A stretch of DNA of 64,000 nt. Source: Eubacteriales bacterium (GTDB lineage Bacteria; Bacillota; Clostridia; Lachnospirales; JAITVM01). Shown here piece after piece: positions 496 to 52,997 of this stretch. The first letter of the stretch is position 1, and each line of letters begins with the position of its first letter. The notes beneath the pieces were generated by a model that was not told the DNA's origin, made no database searches, and saw only the letters and a program-made list of their open reading frames with translations. Made by a program: the position numbers and the translations under genes. The stretch spans positions 18,814 through 82,813 of the forward strand of contig JAVBOA010000015.1 in assembly GCA_031551135.1 (NCBI GenBank), read 5' to 3'.

Positions 496-522
496 TAATA
501 CTATTTTCATATTGATAAGTAT
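496..522. repeat. Family 1 repeat, left-arm fragment
   Basis: TAATACTATTTTCATATTGATAAGTA matches the first ~26 nt of copies A and C. Confidence 0.55.
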
Positions 523-546
523 AAATTCATTTTATGGCTGTTTATC

Positions 547-12472: not shown

Positions 12473-12551
12473 TAATACTATTTTCATTTTGATAAGTAGA
12501 AAAAAATTTTTCACAGCATAGCGTTCCGCGGGATTAAAATGGAAATCTGTA
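12473..12551. repeat. Family 1 repeat, internally deleted copy A
   Basis: The left arm is identical to copy C through TTTTTCACAGC. It then runs GCGTTCCGCGG and joins directly to a degenerate right end AATGGAAATCTGTA. Confidence 0.7.
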
Positions 12552-12661: not shown

Positions 12662-13735
12662 ATGTTTTTTCTCACAGTTTTAGTTTTACTAAACTCTTTT
12701 TTTACATCAAACGCCGTTCAGCCATTTAAGATTGATGAGCCGGTGACCGGAAAGTTTGAAAGCAAACAAATATCGAAGGAATATAAAATCAGTATAAATA
12801 AAACCGCTAACGTAGGCTTTTCATTATTCTGCCATACAGATGGCAGCCCTTCAGATATTTCGTGGAAAATATCTTTTTTTAGCGAAGGCGGATATTCTCC
12901 TGTATTTTTAAGTACAGGCACAGATTTTCAAAAAAATAAAAAACAATCAAAGGATTCGGCGGAATGGTATAAAGAAAATTTAACTTTGCCTACGGGAAAT
13001 TATACCGTAACAGTCTCTGTACCGGAAAAATTATTTAATGATGAAATATCCTATATTGATTATTTATTTGAAATTTATCCTTTTGAAAAAGCCTCAAGCT
13101 TGTCTTATGCGGACAAGCCGAGCGCTTGGGCTCAAAAGGAAGTAGAATCGGCTTTAAAATCAAATCTGGTTCCGGCGGAACTGAGTTCAAAATTTACGGC
13201 AAATATTACCCGGGCAGAATTTGCGCGGCTGGTTTCGTATTATGTGGTAAAAAATATTTCCGGCACGCCGGACGCAACGATTCACGCTATGGATAATTGG
13301 CTGGAAGACAGCAATTTTTACAGGCTTCATGGTATCGAAAAAAAATCTTTTGTATTTGCGGACACAAATGATAAATATATTAATTTTGCGTATTCTACAG
13401 GTGTTGTTGCGGGCGTTGGAGAAGGAAATTTTAATCCAAACGGAGTAATTACTCGTGAACAAGCCGCCGTTATGCTGACAAATGCTTCTTTTACTTCTTC
13501 CAATAAAATAAACATAGGCGCAAAAATAATTTTTAATGACAAATCAGATTTTTCGGATTGGGCAAAAGATGCAATTGATTTTATAACTTCGGTGAGGACT
13601 TATGAAAAATCTGTTGCTGTTATGAGCGGAGTTGAAAACGGGAATTTTGCGCCAAAAGAAAAATATACTCGCGAACAAGCGATTGTTACTGTTTACAGAT
13701 TATTACAATCGACGTTTAGTAATGTAGCGGTTTGA
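12662..13735 (+). CDS. Secreted SLH-domain cell-wall-anchored protein
   Basis: RBS GGAGG and a short signal peptide. The C-terminal half has three SLH-like repeats (ITRAEFARLV, FADTNDKYINFAYSTGVVAGVGEGNFNPNGVITREQAAVML, FSDWAKDAIDF..MSGVENGNFAPKEKYTREQAIV). Confidence 0.75.
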   Translation: MFFLTVLVLLNSFFTSNAVQPFKIDEPVTGKFESKQISKEYKISINKTANVGFSLFCHTDGSPSDISWKISFFSEGGYSPVFLSTGTDFQKNKKQSKDSAEWYKENLTLPTGNYTVTVSVPEKLFNDEISYIDYLFEIYPFEKASSLSYADKPSAWAQKEVESALKSNLVPAELSSKFTANITRAEFARLVSYYVVKNISGTPDATIHAMDNWLEDSNFYRLHGIEKKSFVFADTNDKYINFAYSTGVVAGVGEGNFNPNGVITREQAAVMLTNASFTSSNKINIGAKIIFNDKSDFSDWAKDAIDFITSVRTYEKSVAVMSGVENGNFAPKEKYTREQAIVTVYRLLQSTFSNVAV

Positions 13736-13796
13736 TTTTTTTCCGACTAAAACATTTTGTTTTGAAGATATATAGAATCAAGAAAAATCAAACCGC
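13727..13796. repeat. Hairpin repeat family 2 (GCGGTTTGATTTTT ... AAAAATCAAACCGC), copy 1
   Basis: GCGGTTTGATTTTTTTCCGACTAAAACATTTTGTTTTGAAGATATATAGAATCAAGAAAAATCAAACCGC. Its left arm contains the TGA stop of the SLH gene. It is about 80% identical to the reverse complement of 44659-44729. Confidence 0.85.
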
Positions 13797-13820
13797 AAGT
13801 AATCAATATATAGTTATTAA

Positions 13821-13852
13821 TAATGTAGCGGTTTGATAATGTAGCGGTTTGA
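13821..13852 (+). repeat. Tandem duplication of the 16-mer TAATGTAGCGGTTTGA (also the last 16 nt of the SLH gene, 13720-13735)
   Basis: Exact 16-mers at 13720-13735, 13821-13836 and 13837-13852. Confidence 0.9.
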
Positions 13853-13860
13853 TTAAAAAA

Positions 13861-16670: not shown

Positions 16671-16788
16671 AAAAATTTTTATATATGAAAACTCTGAGGC
16701 GGCACGGAAATCTGTGCCGTCTTTTTCTTTCAAATATAAAAATATAATGTTATCATAATATAGATTAAAAAAATAAAAGGAGAATTTT

Positions 16789-19761: not shown

Positions 19762-19801
19762 TACTATTTTCATTCTAAAAGACAGAAAAATGTAAATAGT
19801 A
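19762..19801. repeat. Short palindromic element (family 1 termini only), likely terminator
   Basis: TACTATTTTCATTCTAAAAGACAGAAAAATGTAAATAGTA. Lies between the FAD/Rieske gene and the next gene. Confidence 0.65.
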
Positions 19802-20648: not shown

Positions 20649-20686
20649 TATTGTATAAACAAAGTTTTGTATTAAAGAATAAAAAA

Positions 20687-20761
20687 GTATTTCATTCTGC
20701 ATCAGAATTGATGCGAAGAATGAAATATTTTTTTATGCATATCAAAATTGAAATAGTACTA
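20687..20761. repeat. Family 1-related hairpin plus right-arm fragment
   Basis: GTATTTCATTCTGCATC..GATGCGAAGAATGAAATATTTTTTT..AAATTGAAATAGTACTA. The right arm resembles GAAATGAAATATTTTTTTCTATCC..GAAATAGTATA of the full copies. Confidence 0.5.
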
Positions 20762-20943
20762 ATAGAATTAAGAAATTGAAAAATAATCAAACTGTTATTT
20801 TTTGTAATTATACTTTAAAAACCATGTATAGTGATAGAAAAATCCGGCGGGATTCAATATCCGTTTAAATTTATTTACTATACTTAAGTAAAATTTATAC
20901 TTGTCGATATAAAAATGTAAAATAATTTTTGAGGCGGTTTATT

Positions 20944-21060
20944 TAATACTATTTCCATTTTGATATGAAGAAAAAAATTTTTCACAGCGGAGTTTTTCGC
21001 GCAACGCTTCAGGCGCGAAATGAAATATTTTTTTCTATCCTTTGGAATGGAAATAGTATA
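20944..21060. repeat. Long palindromic intergenic repeat, family 1, full copy B
   Basis: TAATACTATTTCCATTTTGATATGAAGAAAAAAATTTTTCACAGCGG..TTTCGCGCAACGCTTCAGGCGCGAAATGAAATATTTTTTTCTATCC..GGAAATAGTATA. About 85-90% identical to 36739-36854. Flanked by GCGGTTTA (20934) and TAAACCGC (21066). Confidence 0.85.
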
Positions 21061-21091
21061 AACCGCTATAAGAAAATCTGGAGGTGACAAA

Positions 21092-21640
21092 ATGCGTAAA
21101 TATTTTTGCATATTAAGCTTGAGCTTTATATTATTTTCGGGATGCAATGCTGAAGTGCAGAACAAACCGGCCGATACAGCTTCTGCTGAAATACAGGAGT
21201 CAACAGAGGTGAAAACAAGCGAAATACCTACCGAAACTACCGCGACTACTTCGGCGGTGACATCCGTAGAGCCAACCGAATCTGAAGAGGATTTTGTATA
21301 TAACGACGCTTTTTTGATTAAAGTCGAAAATACAGATATTTTTAAAGAAGCAGGGGAACGTTATTTTTATATCGGGCGCAAAACATGCCCGACTTGCCGC
21401 GATTGGCTGCCTATTTTAGAGGAAGCCAGCGTAGCCAACAATAAAGAGGTCTATTATTTAGATACAGACATTTGGCGAGATAAAGAAGATGGCAAAGAAG
21501 TTATTACAAATCTCGAAATAAAATCTGTTCCTACGCTTGTTAAAATGAAAGACGGGCAGTTAGTCGAAAAGCTTGTAGTTAAAGATGAATTTGAAGAAGC
21601 TGCGGCAAAAACTGAGCTGCAAGAATTTTATACGAAATAA
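21092..21640 (+). CDS. Thioredoxin-fold lipoprotein
   Basis: Lipobox LFSGC, acidic Thr-rich linker, CxxC motif GRKTCPTCRDW and a thioredoxin-like C-terminus. RBS GGAGGTGA. Confidence 0.8.
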   Translation: MRKYFCILSLSFILFSGCNAEVQNKPADTASAEIQESTEVKTSEIPTETTATTSAVTSVEPTESEEDFVYNDAFLIKVENTDIFKEAGERYFYIGRKTCPTCRDWLPILEEASVANNKEVYYLDTDIWRDKEDGKEVITNLEIKSVPTLVKMKDGQLVEKLVVKDEFEEAAAKTELQEFYTK

Positions 21641-35754: not shown

Positions 35755-36711
35755 TTATTTAACTATATGAACGGCAAAACCGCCGATTTCGCCTTCTAAA
35801 TATATAACGGCAAGTTTTCCCTTGTTGTCGTATTTTGCGGATTCCATATCAAATTTTGCGCCGCGCATTTCCAAATAATAAACAGCGCGCTCAAGATTAT
35901 TGCATCGGAAAGCGATATGGCCGTGAAGCCCCTTGAATGGTGATTTCATAATTTCTATTTCACTGCCGTTGAATATAGCGGAATTTCCTTCCTTGATTGC
36001 TTTTCCGAAATATTTGGCGAATTTTTCGGCTATTGCGTTTGCCGAATCCAAATTTTCTGCGTTTATTCCGATATGAGCCAATTGGAAGCCCAAAACCGTA
36101 TCTATCGCTTCTCTCGTGAGTTCGGTTATCTTAGCAAAATTTCCGGATTCGATTAATTCTTCTTTAACCATCCAGCTTCCGCCGCAAGCGACTATTTTGT
36201 CAAATGCCAAATATGAATTTATATTATTTTGATTAACGCCGCCGGTCGGCATGAATTTTATTTTTGTATACGGTGCGGCCAATGCCTTAATCATATTGAT
36301 TCCGCCAAGCTGCTCGGCGGGAAAGAATTTTACGACCGAAAGTCCCATTTCCAAAGCGTTTTCGATATCGGAAGAAGTCGGGCAGCCTGGCAAAACGGGA
36401 ATATTTTTATCTATGCAATATTTAACAACTTTCTGATTAAATCCCGGTGTAACGATAAATTTCGCACCTGCCGCAACGGCGCGGTCTACGGTTTCGATAT
36501 TGAGAACCGTTCCGGCTCCGACAAGCATTTCGGGAAGTTCATTTGAAATAATTCGAATAGCTTCTTCGGCGCAATCTGTACGAAAAGTAAGCTCAGCGGC
36601 CATCAATCCGCCATCACAAAGAGCTTTTGCAAGCGGCAGAGCATTTTCGATTTTATCGATTTTGATAACAGGCACAATACCAATTTTTTCGATTTGTTCA
36701 ATAATATTCAT
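35755..36711 (-). CDS. eda: KDPG/KHG aldolase (Eda) fused to a C-terminal VOC/glyoxalase-like domain
   Basis: Start set to ATG 36711 (RBS AAAGGAG). The track N-terminal extension reads into a repeat. Residues 1-205 are Eda (IVPVIKID, ELTFRT, GAGTV, VKFFPA, KFMPTGG). About 110 extra C-terminal residues (HIGINAEN...HGHIAFRCNNLERAVYYLE...GGFAVHIV) look VOC-like. Confidence 0.85.
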   Translation of the reverse strand: MNIIEQIEKIGIVPVIKIDKIENALPLAKALCDGGLMAAELTFRTDCAEEAIRIISNELPEMLVGAGTVLNIETVDRAVAAGAKFIVTPGFNQKVVKYCIDKNIPVLPGCPTSSDIENALEMGLSVVKFFPAEQLGGINMIKALAAPYTKIKFMPTGGVNQNNINSYLAFDKIVACGGSWMVKEELIESGNFAKITELTREAIDTVLGFQLAHIGINAENLDSANAIAEKFAKYFGKAIKEGNSAIFNGSEIEIMKSPFKGLHGHIAFRCNNLERAVYYLEMRGAKFDMESAKYDNKGKLAVIYLEGEIGGFAVHIVK

Positions 36712-36738
36712 TTTTGAACTCCTTTTATTAATTTTATG

Positions 36739-36854
36739 TAATACTATTTTCATTTTGATAAGTAGAAAAAAATTTTTCACAGTGGAGCGTTTCACGCATG
36801 CTTCAAGCGTGAAATGAAATATTTTTTTCTATCCTTAATAATGAAAATAGTATA
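36739..36854. repeat. Long palindromic intergenic repeat, family 1, full copy C
   Basis: TAATACTATTTTCATTTTGATAAGTAGAAAAAAATTTTTCACAGTGG..TTTCACGCATGCTTCAAGCGTGAAATGAAATATTTTTTTCTATCC..AATGAAAATAGTATA. Lies in the eda/uxaC divergent region. Confidence 0.85.
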
Positions 36855-39337: not shown

Positions 39338-39369
39338 ATACTATCTTCATTTTAAAATGAAAATAGTAT
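39338..39369. repeat. Short palindromic element (family 1 termini only)
   Basis: ATACTATCTTCATTTTAAAATGAAAATAGTAT, a near-perfect palindrome after the TIM-barrel gene. Confidence 0.7.
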
Positions 39370-44658: not shown

Positions 44659-44729
44659 ACGGTTTGATTTTTCTTGATTTTATATGACTTTAAAACAAAA
44701 TGTTTTAATTAGTAAAAAATCAAACCGCT
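44659..44729. repeat. Hairpin repeat family 2, copy 2 (opposite orientation)
   Basis: ACGGTTTGATTTTTCTTGATTTTATATGACTTTAAAACAAAATGTTTTAATTAGTAAAAAATCAAACCGCT. Confidence 0.85.
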
Positions 44730-44759
44730 ATATTCAAAATCAAATAAACGGAGGAAAAT

Positions 44760-45239: not shown

Positions 45240-45257
45240 TAAATACGTTTTATTAAA

Positions 45258-45306
45258 AAAAGCTCTCTTTGCAGAAATATCGAATTTTCCGCAAGGAGAG
45301 CTTTTT
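45258..45306 (+). terminator. Intrinsic terminator after the lipoprotein gene
   Basis: AAAGCTCTCTTTGC...GCAAGGAGAGCTTT (one mismatch) followed by TTTT. Confidence 0.8.
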
Positions 45307-45313
45307 GAATCTA

Positions 45314-45348
45314 TACTGTTTCTATTCTAAAGGACAGAATAAACAGTA
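45314..45348. repeat. Short palindromic element (family 1-like termini)
   Basis: TACTGTTTCTATTCTAAAGGACAGAATAAACAGTA shares its ATTCTAAARGACAGAA centre with 19762-19801. Abuts the stop of the URO-D-family gene. Confidence 0.65.
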
Positions 45349-46356
45349 TTATTGATAAAATTCTTTTACCGTATTAAAAAATTCTTCGATATTCTCCATA
45401 GGCGAAACCGGCGGAATATCGCAGCCCGACGAAATTATAAAATTATCATAAGCCGAACATTTTTCCAGAACTTCCAAAGTGGCTTTTCTTAAAGATTCCG
45501 GAGTTCCGTTTCTGAATTGGCTGGCCGGGTCAACATTGCCCATAACAATTTTATCCGACGGCATAAGCGGGATGATTTCCCACATTTTGATTGAGTTTCC
45601 AAAATGGAAAATTGATGCGCCTGTTTCCAAAACTTCTTTGATAAGCGGAATCGTATTTCCGCAATTATGGTAAATTACAACAAAAAATTCGTCCTGTAGG
45701 GCATCAATTATTTTTTTTACATAAGGGCTGGAAAATTCTCCGATTAATTCCGGAGAAAGAAGTCCGGCGGCAGGCTCGGCTATGAACAATCCGTTTGCTC
45801 CGGTCTCCTTGAAAGCTTTAGCGTATTCGATCAAAAATTCCGTGGCTTTTTCCAGAACAATATGAACTTCTTCGGGGTCGGTATAAGTTTTGCACATAAT
45901 TTCGGTCATATCCATCAATCTTCCGGATAATGAAAACGGACCAATCATTCCGGCGAAAACCGGACGGTCATTAATTTTTTCAACCGCAAGGCTGATAGCT
46001 TTTACATATTCTCCGGTTCTTGCGTCGCCGACTTTCGGAACTTTCAGCGCGATTGCCTCATCTTCGTCGTTTACTAGCGCCGAAATAACGGTTGGAACTT
46101 CGTCATCGGAAAATCTTACCGTTGAACCGAAAGCTTCGGCTTCTACCGATAAATCCATATTGCTGACCGCCGCCAAGGTATCGAATTTTTTCGCAATAGC
46201 CTCCATGCAATCAGCTTGTTTTGCGCCGTCTTTAACCATTTCGCCAACGTTAAGACCTGTCAGCTGAATACCGGGGAAAGAGAGTACAGGCATTGATTTT
46301 TTCGCTTTTGGAGCGGATTTAATCCATTCCATCATATTTGTATTTTTAAAGCTCAT
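45349..46356 (-). CDS. Uroporphyrinogen-decarboxylase-fold methyltransferase (MtaA/CmuA family)
   Basis: Start set to ATG 46356 (RBS AAAGGA). URO-D family pattern: PVLSFPG, FGS, PFSLSGRL, IAEPAAG, IYHNCGN, ISSGCDIPP. Confidence 0.8.
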   Translation of the reverse strand: MSFKNTNMMEWIKSAPKAKKSMPVLSFPGIQLTGLNVGEMVKDGAKQADCMEAIAKKFDTLAAVSNMDLSVEAEAFGSTVRFSDDEVPTVISALVNDEDEAIALKVPKVGDARTGEYVKAISLAVEKINDRPVFAGMIGPFSLSGRLMDMTEIMCKTYTDPEEVHIVLEKATEFLIEYAKAFKETGANGLFIAEPAAGLLSPELIGEFSSPYVKKIIDALQDEFFVVIYHNCGNTIPLIKEVLETGASIFHFGNSIKMWEIIPLMPSDKIVMGNVDPASQFRNGTPESLRKATLEVLEKCSAYDNFIISSGCDIPPVSPMENIEEFFNTVKEFYQ

Positions 46357-46626
46357 AAATATCATCCTTTATTTTGATTTTGATTAATTTTAGTATATCA
46401 ACAATCATGAATTTATTTATTGTGAAATTCAACGTAAAATTGTAAATTTTGATTTATTTTTTGCAGGCGTTCGAATTTTTAGGATTCTATTTTTTCAACA
46501 AATAAAGAAATTACAAAAAAGATTAAAAATTTTATATAATAAAGTAAGAGGAATTGATAAAATTTATTGTAGTCAAATATATTTTATCTGAGTACAGGGA
46601 ATATGTTTTTACATATAGGTGATTAG

Positions 46627-47892
46627 ATGAAAAAGTTGACATTAAAAAATATTTCTTTGGAGCATGCGCGCGAAATCTGCGATAATTACGCTCTTGCCAC
46701 AACTATAAATCTATTTATAATTGATTCTGGTAATCAAATAATTTATAGAACCCGCTCTAAAGAGATTGAGAAAAATAATTGCGGATATGATTTTTGCACA
46801 TATCTCAATAAATGCTCTGCCAATAAAAATACCTGCGAAAGAATTTATTCGTACGGAACAAAAGAGGCAAAACGTTTCGGGGGAAGATATATTTATTTTT
46901 GCCATACCGGTTTGGCGCATTTCACTTCGCCGGTTTTGATAGAAGATGATGTTTTTTTGACAATAGTAAGCGAACCGATTATTATGTTTGACAGCGAAGA
47001 ATATTTTGAAATGGATTTAAAAAAATCGCTGAACCAAGAGCAAAAAGAAGAATTGAAAAAACTTTTAAAATTCGTAAAGCCGGTCGAACCTTCGGTTGTA
47101 CACGCTCTTTCGGAAATGCTTTTTGTGAATACGGAATATATCTCCAAACAAGCCTCTAAAGAAATGGATTCTTATAAAATGCAGGGCAAAATTTCTGAAT
47201 TCAGATATAATTTTAAAGAGGACGAAGAAAATCATATAAACTCGTATTTCGCAAAAGAGGACGAACTGATGAAAGCTATGCAGGCATTTGACAAAGACAG
47301 AGCCAGCGAATTATTGAATGAGATTTTAGGTGAAGTATTTTTTTTATCGGGCTACCGGTTTGAGAAAATAAAATTGCGTGTTGTGGAATTGGTTTCTTTG
47401 CTTTCGAGGGCGGCTATCAAGGGCGGAGCGGATATACGGATTTTTGGCATAAACGACGGATATTTGGAAGAGATAGAAAAATTGAAAACAATAGACGAAA
47501 CAGCTGTTTGGCTTTCAAAAATAATGAATCGCTTTATGGGGGCAATGTTTGATTTTTCTGATGTTCAAAATAAAGATTTGATTTATAAAGCCTTGGAATA
47601 CATAAGGCGTAATTATATGAACAAAATAACATTAGAAACCGTAGCGAATGAAGTTTATTTAAGCCCCGGTTATTTCAGCAAAGTTTTTAAACAGGAAATG
47701 AAAATTAATTTTAGTAATTATTTAAGCGAATATCGAATCGAAAAAAGTAAAATTCTGATTTCGGACAAAAATTTGGAACTGACGGATATTTCGCAGATGG
47801 TCGGGTTTGAGGACCAAAGTTATTTTACTAAAGTTTTTAAAAAAACTACAGGCCAGTCACCCGGTAAATACCGGCGGTCTATGGGAATATAG
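46627..47892 (+). CDS. PocR-sensory-domain AraC family transcriptional regulator
   Basis: N-terminal PocR-like domain (YIYFCHTGLAHFTSPV). C-terminal AraC HTH pair (ITLETVANEVYLSPGYFSKVFK, LTDISQMVGFEDQSYFTKVFKK.TG.SP..YR). Confidence 0.8.
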   Translation: MKKLTLKNISLEHAREICDNYALATTINLFIIDSGNQIIYRTRSKEIEKNNCGYDFCTYLNKCSANKNTCERIYSYGTKEAKRFGGRYIYFCHTGLAHFTSPVLIEDDVFLTIVSEPIIMFDSEEYFEMDLKKSLNQEQKEELKKLLKFVKPVEPSVVHALSEMLFVNTEYISKQASKEMDSYKMQGKISEFRYNFKEDEENHINSYFAKEDELMKAMQAFDKDRASELLNEILGEVFFLSGYRFEKIKLRVVELVSLLSRAAIKGGADIRIFGINDGYLEEIEKLKTIDETAVWLSKIMNRFMGAMFDFSDVQNKDLIYKALEYIRRNYMNKITLETVANEVYLSPGYFSKVFKQEMKINFSNYLSEYRIEKSKILISDKNLELTDISQMVGFEDQSYFTKVFKKTTGQSPGKYRRSMGI

Positions 47893-47924
47893 CAAATTAT
47901 GCAGTTTGATTTAGGAGGATGAAA

Positions 47925-48563
47925 ATGCAGGAAATTTTAACAGAAATATCTGAACAGCTTCAAAAAGGAAAGGCGAAAATTGTTAAGGAATTAGTGCAAA
48001 AAGCCGTTGATGAGGGAATCCCCGTTCAGACAATATTACAAGACGCTCTGCTTGCAGGAATGGACGTTGTCGGCGGAAAATTCAAAAGAAACGAAGTTTT
48101 TGTTCCGGAGGTTTTGATAACAGCAAGAGCTATGAACCAAGGAATGGGAGTTTTAAAGCCATATTTGAAAGAATCCGGAATCGAGCCGCTGGGCAAAGCG
48201 ATTATCGGAACAGTGAAAGGCGATTTGCATGATATCGGCAAGAATCTTGTAAAAATGATGCTTGAAGGCAAGGGCATCGAGGTTATAGATTTGGGCACGG
48301 ATGTTTCGGCGGAGGATTTTGTGGAAAAGGCGAAAGACGAAAATGCTAAAATAATTTGTTTATCCGCGCTTTTAACGACTACAATGGGCGAACTCGGCAA
48401 TGTTGTGGAGGCTTTTGAAAAAGCCGGTATTAGGGATAATGTAACAATTATGGTCGGCGGCGCTCCTGTAACAGACGATTTTTGCAAAAAAGTAAGAGCA
48501 GATATTTATCAGCCGGATGCGGCATCTGCGGCAGAATCCGCAAAAGCTGTATTGGTTTCATAA
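47925..48563 (+). CDS. Corrinoid (cobalamin-binding) protein of methyltransferase systems
   Basis: Start set to the second ATG (RBS AGGAGG). N-terminal helical cap, then a B12-binding Rossmann domain with DxHxxG motif GDLHDIGKNLV, SALLTTT and VGGAP. Confidence 0.85.
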   Translation: MQEILTEISEQLQKGKAKIVKELVQKAVDEGIPVQTILQDALLAGMDVVGGKFKRNEVFVPEVLITARAMNQGMGVLKPYLKESGIEPLGKAIIGTVKGDLHDIGKNLVKMMLEGKGIEVIDLGTDVSAEDFVEKAKDENAKIICLSALLTTTMGELGNVVEAFEKAGIRDNVTIMVGGAPVTDDFCKKVRADIYQPDAASAAESAKAVLVS

Positions 48564-51435: not shown

Positions 51436-51473
51436 TAATACTATTTCCACTATAAATAAATGAAAATAGTATA
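51436..51473. repeat. Short palindromic element (family 1 termini only)
   Basis: TAATACTATTTCCACTATAAATAAATGAAAATAGTATA, 50 bp from full copy D. Confidence 0.65.
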
Positions 51474-51522: not shown

Positions 51523-51635
51523 ATACTATTTCCCTTTTAAAGAATAGAAAAAAATATTTCATTCCGCGCTTGAAGCGTTGCGCGGAACGCTTCGCTGTGA
51601 AAATTTTTTTCTACAAATCAAATGGGAATTAGTAT
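51523..51635. repeat. Long palindromic intergenic repeat, family 1, full copy D (opposite orientation)
   Basis: Its reverse complement aligns with copies B and C: ..GTAGAAAAAAATTTTCACAGCGAAGCGTTCCGCGCAACGCTTCAAGCGCGGAATGAAATATTTTTTTCTATTC..GGGAAATAGTAT. Confidence 0.8.
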
Positions 51636-51659
51636 CAGCAGAGCGGATAATCAAGAACA

Positions 51660-51715
51660 GGGGCTGGATATTCCGACCTGAAAATATTGGCATTTTCAGG
51701 TCAGATATCAGCCCC
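51660..51715 (-). terminator. Long hairpin downstream of the yabE-like gene
   Basis: GGGGCTGGATATTCCGACCTGAAAAT-attggc-ATTTTCAGGTCAGATATCAGCCCC, a stem of about 24 bp. Confidence 0.65.
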
Positions 51716-51776: not shown

Positions 51777-52997
51777 TTAATCAACGAGATAAACTACCGT
51801 CGATCTTCTTCCATATTGAATACATTCGTTATAAGTATTAAAAAACAAATCTATTTTGTTGCCTTTAATCGAACCGCCGGTATCTGCCGCAACGGCATAA
51901 CCGTAGCCTTTTACATATAATACGGAACCAAGAGGGATAACGTTTCTGTCAACAGCGACAATACCGAGTTTTGTAGGTACGCCGGACGCAGTTATTCCAT
52001 AATAAGGGTCTCCCGGGGATTTTCCGGTTTCGCTCGGACCATTTGTATAGGCCGTAGCGGTCATATTATAAACAGCTTTATATGATTCGGGAACATAGTT
52101 TGCGGAAACATTTTTGAAACTGCTTCTGGTCTCAGCAAGGGCTGTAAGCAATCTGGAATGGTTTTTAAGGTTTTTGGCTGCCGAGATAAGTGCGGAAATA
52201 TCGCTATTATCCGATGATTGGTTTTCGGCATTAGAGCTGTTGTTAGTATTATTTGCTTTAACTGTCTCGACTACAGGCTCTGGTTTAGGTATCGGCTTAG
52301 ATTTTGTACCTTTAGAGATTACTTTGTTTACAGGTTCCGCGATGATTGTGTCCGAAACAACATTGTCTTCCAACAAAACATCCGATTCATATATTTTCTG
52401 TTTTACAATTTCTCTCTTGCCTTCGGTTCCTTCGGCTTTAACAGAGTCTTCGCCGACATAAACTTCGGGGTTTTCTTCGATAACGGTTTCGAAACCAATA
52501 TTTTCGTAGCTTACCGCAGTTTCGGTACGCTTTGTAACCAAAGTGATAGTTTGACCTTTTTTAAGGTCATCAGATGGTAACCCGTTTTTATAAACGTATT
52601 CTGTCTTAACTGTGGAATTTTCATCTTTCTTTATGTTATTAGCTTCTGTTAATGAAGAAATAACATGACCGACCTTTAAGCCGGGCTCGACTTTTAAAGT
52701 TCTTGCTTTGTTATCAATTTTTACATTTACATAATATCCTCTTTGTATAACGATATCGGTATTTATGTCGATAACCATGTCAAGCGGAACATTAATTTTG
52801 TCTTTGTCTTCAAGAACTATATTTTCCTCTTTAAGAAATTGGGCAACGGTTTTTTCGAGTATTCTGTATCTTGAGATTTCTCCGTCGTCGATAGTTACAG
52901 AAACATCTTTGAAAGTAGCTTCGTAAGCACTAGCAGCTCCGGCAAAAACAGCCAAAATAATAATTACTAAAAACAAAACTCTAAATTTCTTAAACAT
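51777..52997 (-). CDS. YabE-like cell-wall protein (DUF348 repeats, G5 domain, C-terminal 3D domain)
   Basis: RBS GAGGAGG and a signal/TM segment. G5 region (GEDSVKAEGTEGKREIV). C-terminal 3D domain (TATAYT...GITASG...IVAVD..VIPLGS.LYV.GYG..VAADTGG.IKG..IDLF). Synteny with metG-tatD as in B. subtilis metS-yabD-yabE. Confidence 0.85.
   Translation of the reverse strand: MFKKFRVLFLVIIILAVFAGAASAYEATFKDVSVTIDDGEISRYRILEKTVAQFLKEENIVLEDKDKINVPLDMVIDINTDIVIQRGYYVNVKIDNKARTLKVEPGLKVGHVISSLTEANNIKKDENSTVKTEYVYKNGLPSDDLKKGQTITLVTKRTETAVSYENIGFETVIEENPEVYVGEDSVKAEGTEGKREIVKQKIYESDVLLEDNVVSDTIIAEPVNKVISKGTKSKPIPKPEPVVETVKANNTNNSSNAENQSSDNSDISALISAAKNLKNHSRLLTALAETRSSFKNVSANYVPESYKAVYNMTATAYTNGPSETGKSPGDPYYGITASGVPTKLGIVAVDRNVIPLGSVLYVKGYGYAVAADTGGSIKGNKIDLFFNTYNECIQYGRRSTVVYLVD

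Follow-up and report, generated by a model that had tools for sequence, protein, structure and literature searches.

The repeats described in this study, each about 112 bp long when complete, are probably copies of a non-autonomous foldback MITE that is inserted by a DDE-type transposase supplied in trans. Three full and seven partial copies are found in the 64-kb window (the whole stretch of DNA that was analysed), which is an ordinary chromosomal region of low GC content (about 34%) from a spore-forming, SLH-bearing Firmicute; its genes include metG, tatD, the hexuronate genes uxaC-uxaB-uxaA, eda/kduI/kduD, and genes for GGDEF-EAL and LCP proteins and for polysaccharide deacetylases. Bacterial MITEs have terminal inverted repeats (TIRs) and flanking direct repeats, encode no transposase and classically form long stem-loops (PMC3184786). 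The present family agrees with such elements in its TIRs, its target-site duplications (TSDs), its size, which is below the limit of about 400 bp for MITEs, its dispersed copies, its paired variants and its lack of a conserved ORF. The family itself is new, whereas its kind, including the paired changes that preserve the hairpin, is already known from other bacterial MITEs.

The copies (Table 1) were recovered by a repeat search and by a covariance model for which the full copies B, C and D were used. All of the copies listed in an earlier reading of the letters alone (hereafter the sequence-only reading) are present, at about the coordinates given there. A supposed fragment at 20687-20761 is indeed related to the family, but is actually a diverged, inverted and nearly whole copy (F), and four short palindromes with the same termini (S1, S2, S3 and S4) had been overlooked. 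The full copies are 82-87% identical in pairwise comparison and are thus not recent duplicates, which was a possibility that the sequence-only reading had raised against itself. The outer arm that copy F retains (GTACTATTTCAATTTTGATATG) is B-like, its middle arms are both present, and it carries GCATCA/TGATGC in place of the central stem, so that its centre is different and still palindromic; one outer arm and the 10-nt bulge of the full copies are missing from it. In the internally deleted copy, the left arm through to half of the central stem (CACAGCATAGCGTTCCGCG) is fused to a right outer arm that has decayed (AAAATGGAAATCTGTA).

Table 1. Positions in the window of the copies of the family and of the two halves of the site occupied by copy B.
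Feature	Position	Strand	Remarks
Full copy B	20947-21058	+	112 bp; termini TACT...AGTA; covariance model 139.7 bits
Full copy C	36742-36852	+	111 bp; covariance model 128.4 bits
Full copy D	51524-51634	- (inverted)	111 bp; covariance model 131.4 bits
Diverged copy F	20668-20758	-	covariance model 24.7 bits
Internally deleted copy	12476-12551	+	left flank TAA
Left-arm fragment (TACTATTTTCATATTGATAAGTA...)	499-533	+	left flank TAA
Short derivative S1	19762-19801	+	40 bp; flanks TTG/TTA
Short derivative S2	39339-39368	+	30 bp, two outer arms abutted; flanks TTA/TTA; 29.4 bits, 82 model positions deleted
Short derivative S3	51439-51471	+	33 bp; flanks TAA/TAG
Short derivative S4	45314-45348	+	35 bp; flanks CTA/TTA
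Left half, copy B insertion site	20934-20946		GCGGTTTATT + TAA; TAA at 20944-20946
Right half, copy B insertion site	21059-21072		TAA + ACCGCTATAAG; TAA at 21059-21061

The four short palindromes align to the covariance model as outer arms only, with the interior deleted. S1 consists of both outer arms and ATTCTAAAAGACAGAAAAA, a sequence corresponding to the loop together with the beginning of the middle arm, and because both S1 and S4 retain a piece of the loop and middle arm, they are deletion derivatives and not ancestral sites. The arms of S4, TACTGTTT/AAACAGTA, represent a further change on both sides relative to TACTATTT/AAATAGTA. One-sided changes are present in S1, S2 and S3; in S3 the left arm is of the B type (C) and the right arm is of the C type (A), which leaves this position uncompensated. 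Two other matches to the covariance model, at 16671-16747 and 45255-45308, were rejected as ordinary GC-rich hairpins of the terminator type and are not members of the family.

The repeat and the hairpin of the sequence-only reading were both recovered, but it had overlooked the TIRs with their variable 3-bp flanks, on which the assignment to transposition depends. The TIRs, TACTATTTYCATT and AATGRAAATAGTA, pair over 13-14 bp in B and C and have two mismatches in D; the terminal motif was matched 21 times compared with 8.2 expected, with all of the strong matches being paired. Just outside TACT...AGTA, 3-bp direct flanks are found, which are TAA/TAA in B and in C, TGA/TGA in D (TCA when read on the + strand) and TTA/TTA in S2, and in the older derivatives S1, S3 and S4 the flanks agree at two of the three bases. 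As the outer T and A may also be read as an extension of the inverted repeat by 1-3 bp, the main support for a duplication comes from the middle base and from D and S2. The middle flank base is identical in all seven of these copies, for which chance would give approximately 0.274^7 = 1e-4, and it is complementary, as an extension of the palindrome would predict, in none of the seven. Furthermore, the fifth full-type copy, E (L055, 12465-12493), which starts 8 kb outside the window, has the arm variants of D, including its two mismatches, yet is flanked by TAA and not by TGA, which argues that the flank is not inherited with the subfamily. TIRs combined with variable 3-bp duplications point to cut-and-paste transposition of the DDE type. 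The right flank of S4, TTA (45349-45351), serves as the stop codon, read as TAA on the minus strand, of a URO-D-like gene at 45349-46365; the insertion thus directly adjoins the end of this gene, and a stop is preserved by the duplication. The cluster at 45349-48563, which encodes a URO-D/MtaA-like methyltransferase, a PocR-AraC regulator and a B12-binding protein, is unrelated to the repeats and looks like a corrinoid-dependent methyl-transfer system.

All of the copies are intergenic, occur in both orientations and have unrelated neighbours (lipoprotein, eda/uxaC, GGDEF-EAL, LCP/SLH and sugar-binding protein genes). Copy B, upstream of which there are promoter-like sites, ends 33 nt 5' of the ATG (21092) of a thioredoxin-like lipoprotein gene, copy C lies between the divergent genes eda (start at 36711, minus strand) and uxaC (37007), 27 nt from the eda start, and copy D lies just downstream of a long hairpin that follows the gene at 51777-52997. 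This hairpin (51657-51712, GGGGCTGGATATTCCGACCTGAAAAT...ATTTTCAGGTCAGATATCAGCCCC) is nearly perfect, is unrelated in sequence to the family and is probably the terminator of that gene. No ORF is conserved within the element, in agreement with the sequence-only reading, as the frames of this 111-112-bp unit are broken by a 1-nt indel in C and in D. Since B and C are close to start codons, gene callers extend ORFs into the element, and the look-alike peptides noticed previously arise, as had been proposed, from such spurious extensions. The mechanically called eda ORF (35755-36795, minus strand) has 28 extra upstream codons in copy C (MKRSTVKNFFLLIKMKIVLHKINKRSSK-); the real eda start is the ATG at 36711, with AAGGAG upstream of it. 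A 93-aa ORF at 20884-21165, which spans copy B, is likewise spurious. Consensus scans for promoters and terminators showed no consistent site inside the copies, and a role of the element as an intrinsic terminator or promoter was therefore unsupported.

Each of the full copies folds into one three-tier hairpin. The RNA folds of the full copies, on either strand, have energies of -37 to -42 kcal/mol with z-scores of -5.9 to -8.8, and the DNA folds have energies of -25 to -27 kcal/mol with z-scores of -5.9 to -7.8, so that the nested hairpin described previously is borne out with z of about -6 to -9 per full copy. In all three, the "forward" strand folds better by 0.7-4.3 kcal/mol through G:U pairs. 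Over the 41 base pairs of the model, 96.7% of the cells are paired, and four pairs, two each from the outer arm and the central stem, are changed on both sides with complementarity kept: in the outer arm, a C:G pair in B and D corresponds to T:A in C (columns 12/107) and an A:T pair in B and C corresponds to C:G in D (columns 14/105), and columns 54/75 and 56/73 of the central stem differ likewise. The paired differences between copies that the sequence-only reading had pointed out are thus real and non-random, as at least four pairs with matching patterns are obtained with P of about 6e-5 when the 14 variable stem columns are randomly placed, a calculation in which complementarity is not yet required. 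In a shuffle test of covariation, which is weak with three sequences, the observed value was reached in nine of 500 shuffles, and variable columns are half as frequent in the stem (14/82) as at unpaired positions (11/32), with a Fisher p of 0.076. Covariation was counted on the three full copies and hence on few sequences and few events. An alternative central pairing, GAAGCGTT/AACGCTTC, which would correspond to a pseudoknot or an attenuator-like switch, was rejected, as it is strong in D only and is not conserved in B or C.

In the sequence-only reading, the paired differences were taken as the signature of selection for the hairpin. The paired changes are real, but selection is not established by them, as arm-to-arm correction yields the same pattern and there are three full copies. 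In this explanation the differences are unselected and arise because the arms of the palindrome correct each other, by mismatch repair in a hairpin or cruciform or by template switching, so that a mutation in one arm would be either lost or transferred to the opposite arm; the element would still be a MITE, and the covariation would say nothing of function. We consider this to be a serious possibility, although on balance a doubtful one. Templated mutation at quasi-palindromes is established bacterial genetics, and the element is a near-perfect DNA palindrome with a strong DNA fold, both strands of which fold almost equally. The many internal-deletion derivatives show the instability of the palindrome, and copy F, which is without the bulge and has extra central pairs, has become more symmetrical. 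However, the asymmetric parts of the hairpin, a 5+5-nt internal loop and a 10-nt bulge in the left arm (CAGYGRAGYK), are conserved and have not been symmetrized in B, C, D and the deleted copy, D and E have two uncorrected arm mismatches in common, and unpaired changes are present in S1, S2, S3 and S4. The differences between the full copies are mostly paired, whereas those in the decayed derivatives are unpaired, from which we infer that the hairpin is constrained in the source copies.

A stronger form of this constraint, in which the whole-length hairpin and not its ends alone is the selected unit, appears to be unlikely. In one version, an element with TIRs and TSDs would fold as single-stranded DNA for its mobilization, as a hybrid of DDE-type and hairpin-dependent transposition; in the other version, the copies would be RNA hairpin modules that have been recruited by the host and that set the mRNA stability or translation of adjacent genes. 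In either version, the paired substitutions would record purifying selection on the structure. It is also quite unlikely that the repeats are primarily a structured RNA family (a cis-regulatory leader, a small RNA or a hairpin that governs mRNA stability) whose function the host preserves and whose hairpin is under selection as RNA. The strong folds, the four compensated pairs, the better fold of the forward strand in three of three copies, the location of B and C about 30 nt from start codons and the promoter-like sites 5' of B would suit such a family. Against it, Rfam gave no match even at a permissive threshold, the flanking genes are unrelated, the orientation with respect to the neighbouring genes is mixed, D is placed after a terminator-like hairpin, no consistent internal promoter or terminator is found and the syntenic locus of the nearest relative (63% UxaC) lacks the element. 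The target duplications, the truncated and deleted copies and the subfamilies are, moreover, features of transposons.

The sequence-only reading had also proposed a link to the IS200/IS605 or TnpA(REP) systems, in which the repeats would be REP/BIME-like or IS200/IS605-derived palindromes that a Y1 (HUH) transposase, for example RAYT/TnpA(REP), mobilizes in the form of single-stranded hairpins. REP/BIME sequences with RAYT and the palindromes of IS200/IS605 are, like the present family, abundant extragenic palindromes recognized as hairpins; the whole element is a hairpin, the paired changes fit the recognition of a folded single strand, and C, D and the deleted copy contain a GTAG within the left arm. 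However, this GTAG is internal only and is missing from B, the copies are singly dispersed without BIME-like clusters, the window contains no Y1 transposase gene, and the 112 bp of the element far exceed the 20-40 nt of REP, in which a GTAG-type tetranucleotide is conserved on the 5' side. IS200/IS605-derived (PATE-like) palindromes, for their part, have sub-terminal hairpins but lack TIRs, and they insert beside a fixed target of 4-5 nt, which is not duplicated. Above all, the family has true TIRs and 3-bp target duplications, neither of which is produced by Y1 transposition; the proposed link does not fit and this origin is very improbable. Scarcely credible is the explanation that the outer arms are operators of a dimeric DNA-binding regulator and that, in the long forms, unrelated DNA separates the half-sites of such an operator, for although palindromes with the half-site TACTATTTTCAT lie just 5' of the ribosome-binding sites of several genes and two palindromes are located in the hexuronate locus, the half-sites are 0 to 84 bp apart, conservation between loci extends to the internal sequence, the flanking genes are functionally unrelated, copies D and S4 lie downstream of genes, the copies have direct flanking duplications and assemblies break at them.

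The insertion site of copy B resembles the end of a second repeat family in the window, family 2, and the sequence-only reading had considered either nesting of one element in the other or a shared recognition end. Positions 20934-20946 and 21059-21066 rejoin to the palindrome GCGGTTTATT-TAA-ACCGC. With B and one TAA excised, GCGGTTTATT-TAA-ACCGCTATA is obtained and the site reads GCGGTTTATTTAAACCGCTATA, a small palindrome like abutted family-2 ends. The family-2 ends, GCGGTTTGATTTTT...AAAAATCAAACCGCTATA, match the outer bases and the following CTATA of the rejoined site, CTATA is also found after the family-2 copy ending at 44734, and AAACCGCTATA, at the right of the B site, is present at the right end of that copy (44720-44734). 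The 8-mer GCGGTTTA alone, by contrast, is at its chance frequency in the window (five found compared with 2.95 expected) and no uninterrupted GCGGTTT...AAACCGC palindrome is found elsewhere, and for these reasons it was dropped as a shared recognition end. Of the proposed nesting, then, the 8-mer does not carry the case but the likeness of the site to a family-2 end persists, and this likeness weakly supports the view that copy B may have inserted into the middle of a collapsed family-2 element. Family 2 itself is about 75 bp long, with copies at 13721-13795 and 44660-44734 (inverted) that have the ends GCGGTTTGATTTTT...AAAAATCAAACCGC and are 88% complementary to each other. A tandem pair of solo family-2 ends (AATGTAGCGGTTTGAT, twice) is located at 13820-13854, and a Logan contig ends inside the copy at 44660. 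Family 2 is probably another MITE-like family.

Between the TIRs of the foldback MITE lie sub-terminal arms that are A/T-rich and a central stem-loop that is GC-rich, with the whole element forming one imperfect palindrome. In the mechanism proposed here, a DDE cut-and-paste transposase, which would act in trans and would be either encoded elsewhere in the genome or already lost, would cleave T-N-A sites of AT-rich intergenic DNA with a stagger of 3 bp and thereby generate the 3-bp duplications. After insertion, the long palindromes would decay by internal deletion, giving the deleted copy and the arms-only palindromes of 30-40 bp. The constraint on the hairpin may act on single-stranded DNA, on a cruciform or, if the element is co-transcribed, on RNA. 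Where copies lie in 5' leaders, as B and C would, the mRNA would include the hairpin and could be altered by it in stability or processing, which would be a side-effect and not the reason for the existence of the element.

No transposase was found among the ORFs of the window or of its extensions, nor was an autonomous IS with matching ends (TACTATTTYCAT) found in them, and a BLAST search of plasmids and phages gave nothing similar to the element and no matching IS. An IS5 or PIF/Harbinger-type transposase is a lead only, suggested by the length of the duplication and the AT-rich T-N-A target. IS3, IS30 and IS982 elements can likewise make 3-bp duplications (ISfinder). The TAA/TTA target is the classic Tourist site, and the family shares with Tourist/PIF and IS5 elements a 3-bp duplication at an AT-rich TNA/TWA target; however, Tourist/PIF elements are eukaryotic and the analysis recovered neither an IS5-family transposase nor IS ends that match, so that the link consists of the duplication alone. 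Duplications of 3 bp in AT-rich targets are described for IS5 and PIF/Harbinger (PMC4122938) and for Tourist/PIF/Harbinger MITEs together with IS5 (PMC4122938; PMC2213677).

Focusing on bacterial elements of comparable architecture, the Correia elements (NEMIS) of Neisseria, ERIC of enterobacteria and RUP of Streptococcus pneumoniae are similar to the present family in being intergenic imperfect palindromes of 100-160 bp with TIRs and with shorter variants formed by internal deletion. They are often co-transcribed as hairpins that affect the mRNA. Their sequences are unrelated to that of the family, and Correia and RUP duplicate TA (2 bp), compared with 3 bp here. The element bcr1 of the Bacillus cereus group, which is the nearest precedent for the family, is likewise an intergenic Firmicute MITE of similar size (about 155 bp compared with about 112 bp) that is non-coding, is flanked by direct repeats and forms a long stem-loop, and compensatory base-pair changes that keep its stem-loop have been reported (PMC3184786). 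It differs in having 5-bp direct repeats compared with the 3-bp T-N-A of the family, in belonging to another host lineage and in that its transcription has been shown, and no sequence similarity between the two was seen.

Contigs assembled in Logan from the short reads of two runs (SRR23967709 and SRR23967707) terminate within each of B, C, D and E, which is expected when the k-mers of a multi-copy repeat are common to other copies; copy D is found with identical flanks in two SRA runs. Two further copies are read through by the spurious ORFs P0001 and P0122, on NCBI contigs of 185,569 and 190,281 bp that probably belong to the same genome. These two ORFs were the only matches in an exhaustive HMMER search with the element-encoded peptide against 1.84 billion representative proteins; a profile search with the peptide found P0001, and a concatenated six-frame query gave no match. 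P0122 represents a full copy in which outer arms of the C type are combined with a central half-stem of the B type, and the paired variants therefore assort independently among copies.

No relatives of the element were found in Rfam, plasmids, phages or viral contigs. The Rfam matches near B and F are sub-threshold chance matches, and Rfam gave no match at its gathering thresholds over the window, consistent with the statement in the sequence-only reading that the repeat matches no named element. A scan of genome contigs with the low-complexity 19-mer ATGAAATATTTTTTTCTAT gave at least 51 chance matches, none of which, among the matches listed, carries the element, and a scan of metagenomes with the two-arm pattern gave a single chance match, to an AT-rich contig. 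This contig, ODAI012681703.1 (L053, 1322 bp), is very AT-rich, has CCCCAAT/GGGGATT-type telomere-like repeats at both ends and is a eukaryotic (ciliate-like) mini-chromosome. In the searched collections the organism lacks a close relative, with the best UxaC homologue being 63% identical. The gene order uxaC / TIM-barrel / uxaB / uxaA / GntR / MatE is conserved in this relative; the element is absent from its syntenic uxa locus, where the intergenic DNA is too diverged to align or to define empty sites. Exact matches to the proteins of the window were found, among retrievable data, only in the two Logan runs. Within what was searched, the family looks confined to its host lineage.

In conclusion, the MITE family explains the fragmented assemblies of this organism, as well as the look-alike spurious peptides and the false N-terminal extensions of its gene products, such as the 28 extra residues on eda. 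It opens no new class of system, and adds to the known bacterial MITEs a family from a Firmicute lineage with a 3-bp T-N-A duplication and with clear paired changes that preserve the hairpin. The whole genome may contain perhaps a hundred or more copies, and with these the family could serve to separate selection for a hairpin from the self-correction of a palindrome.
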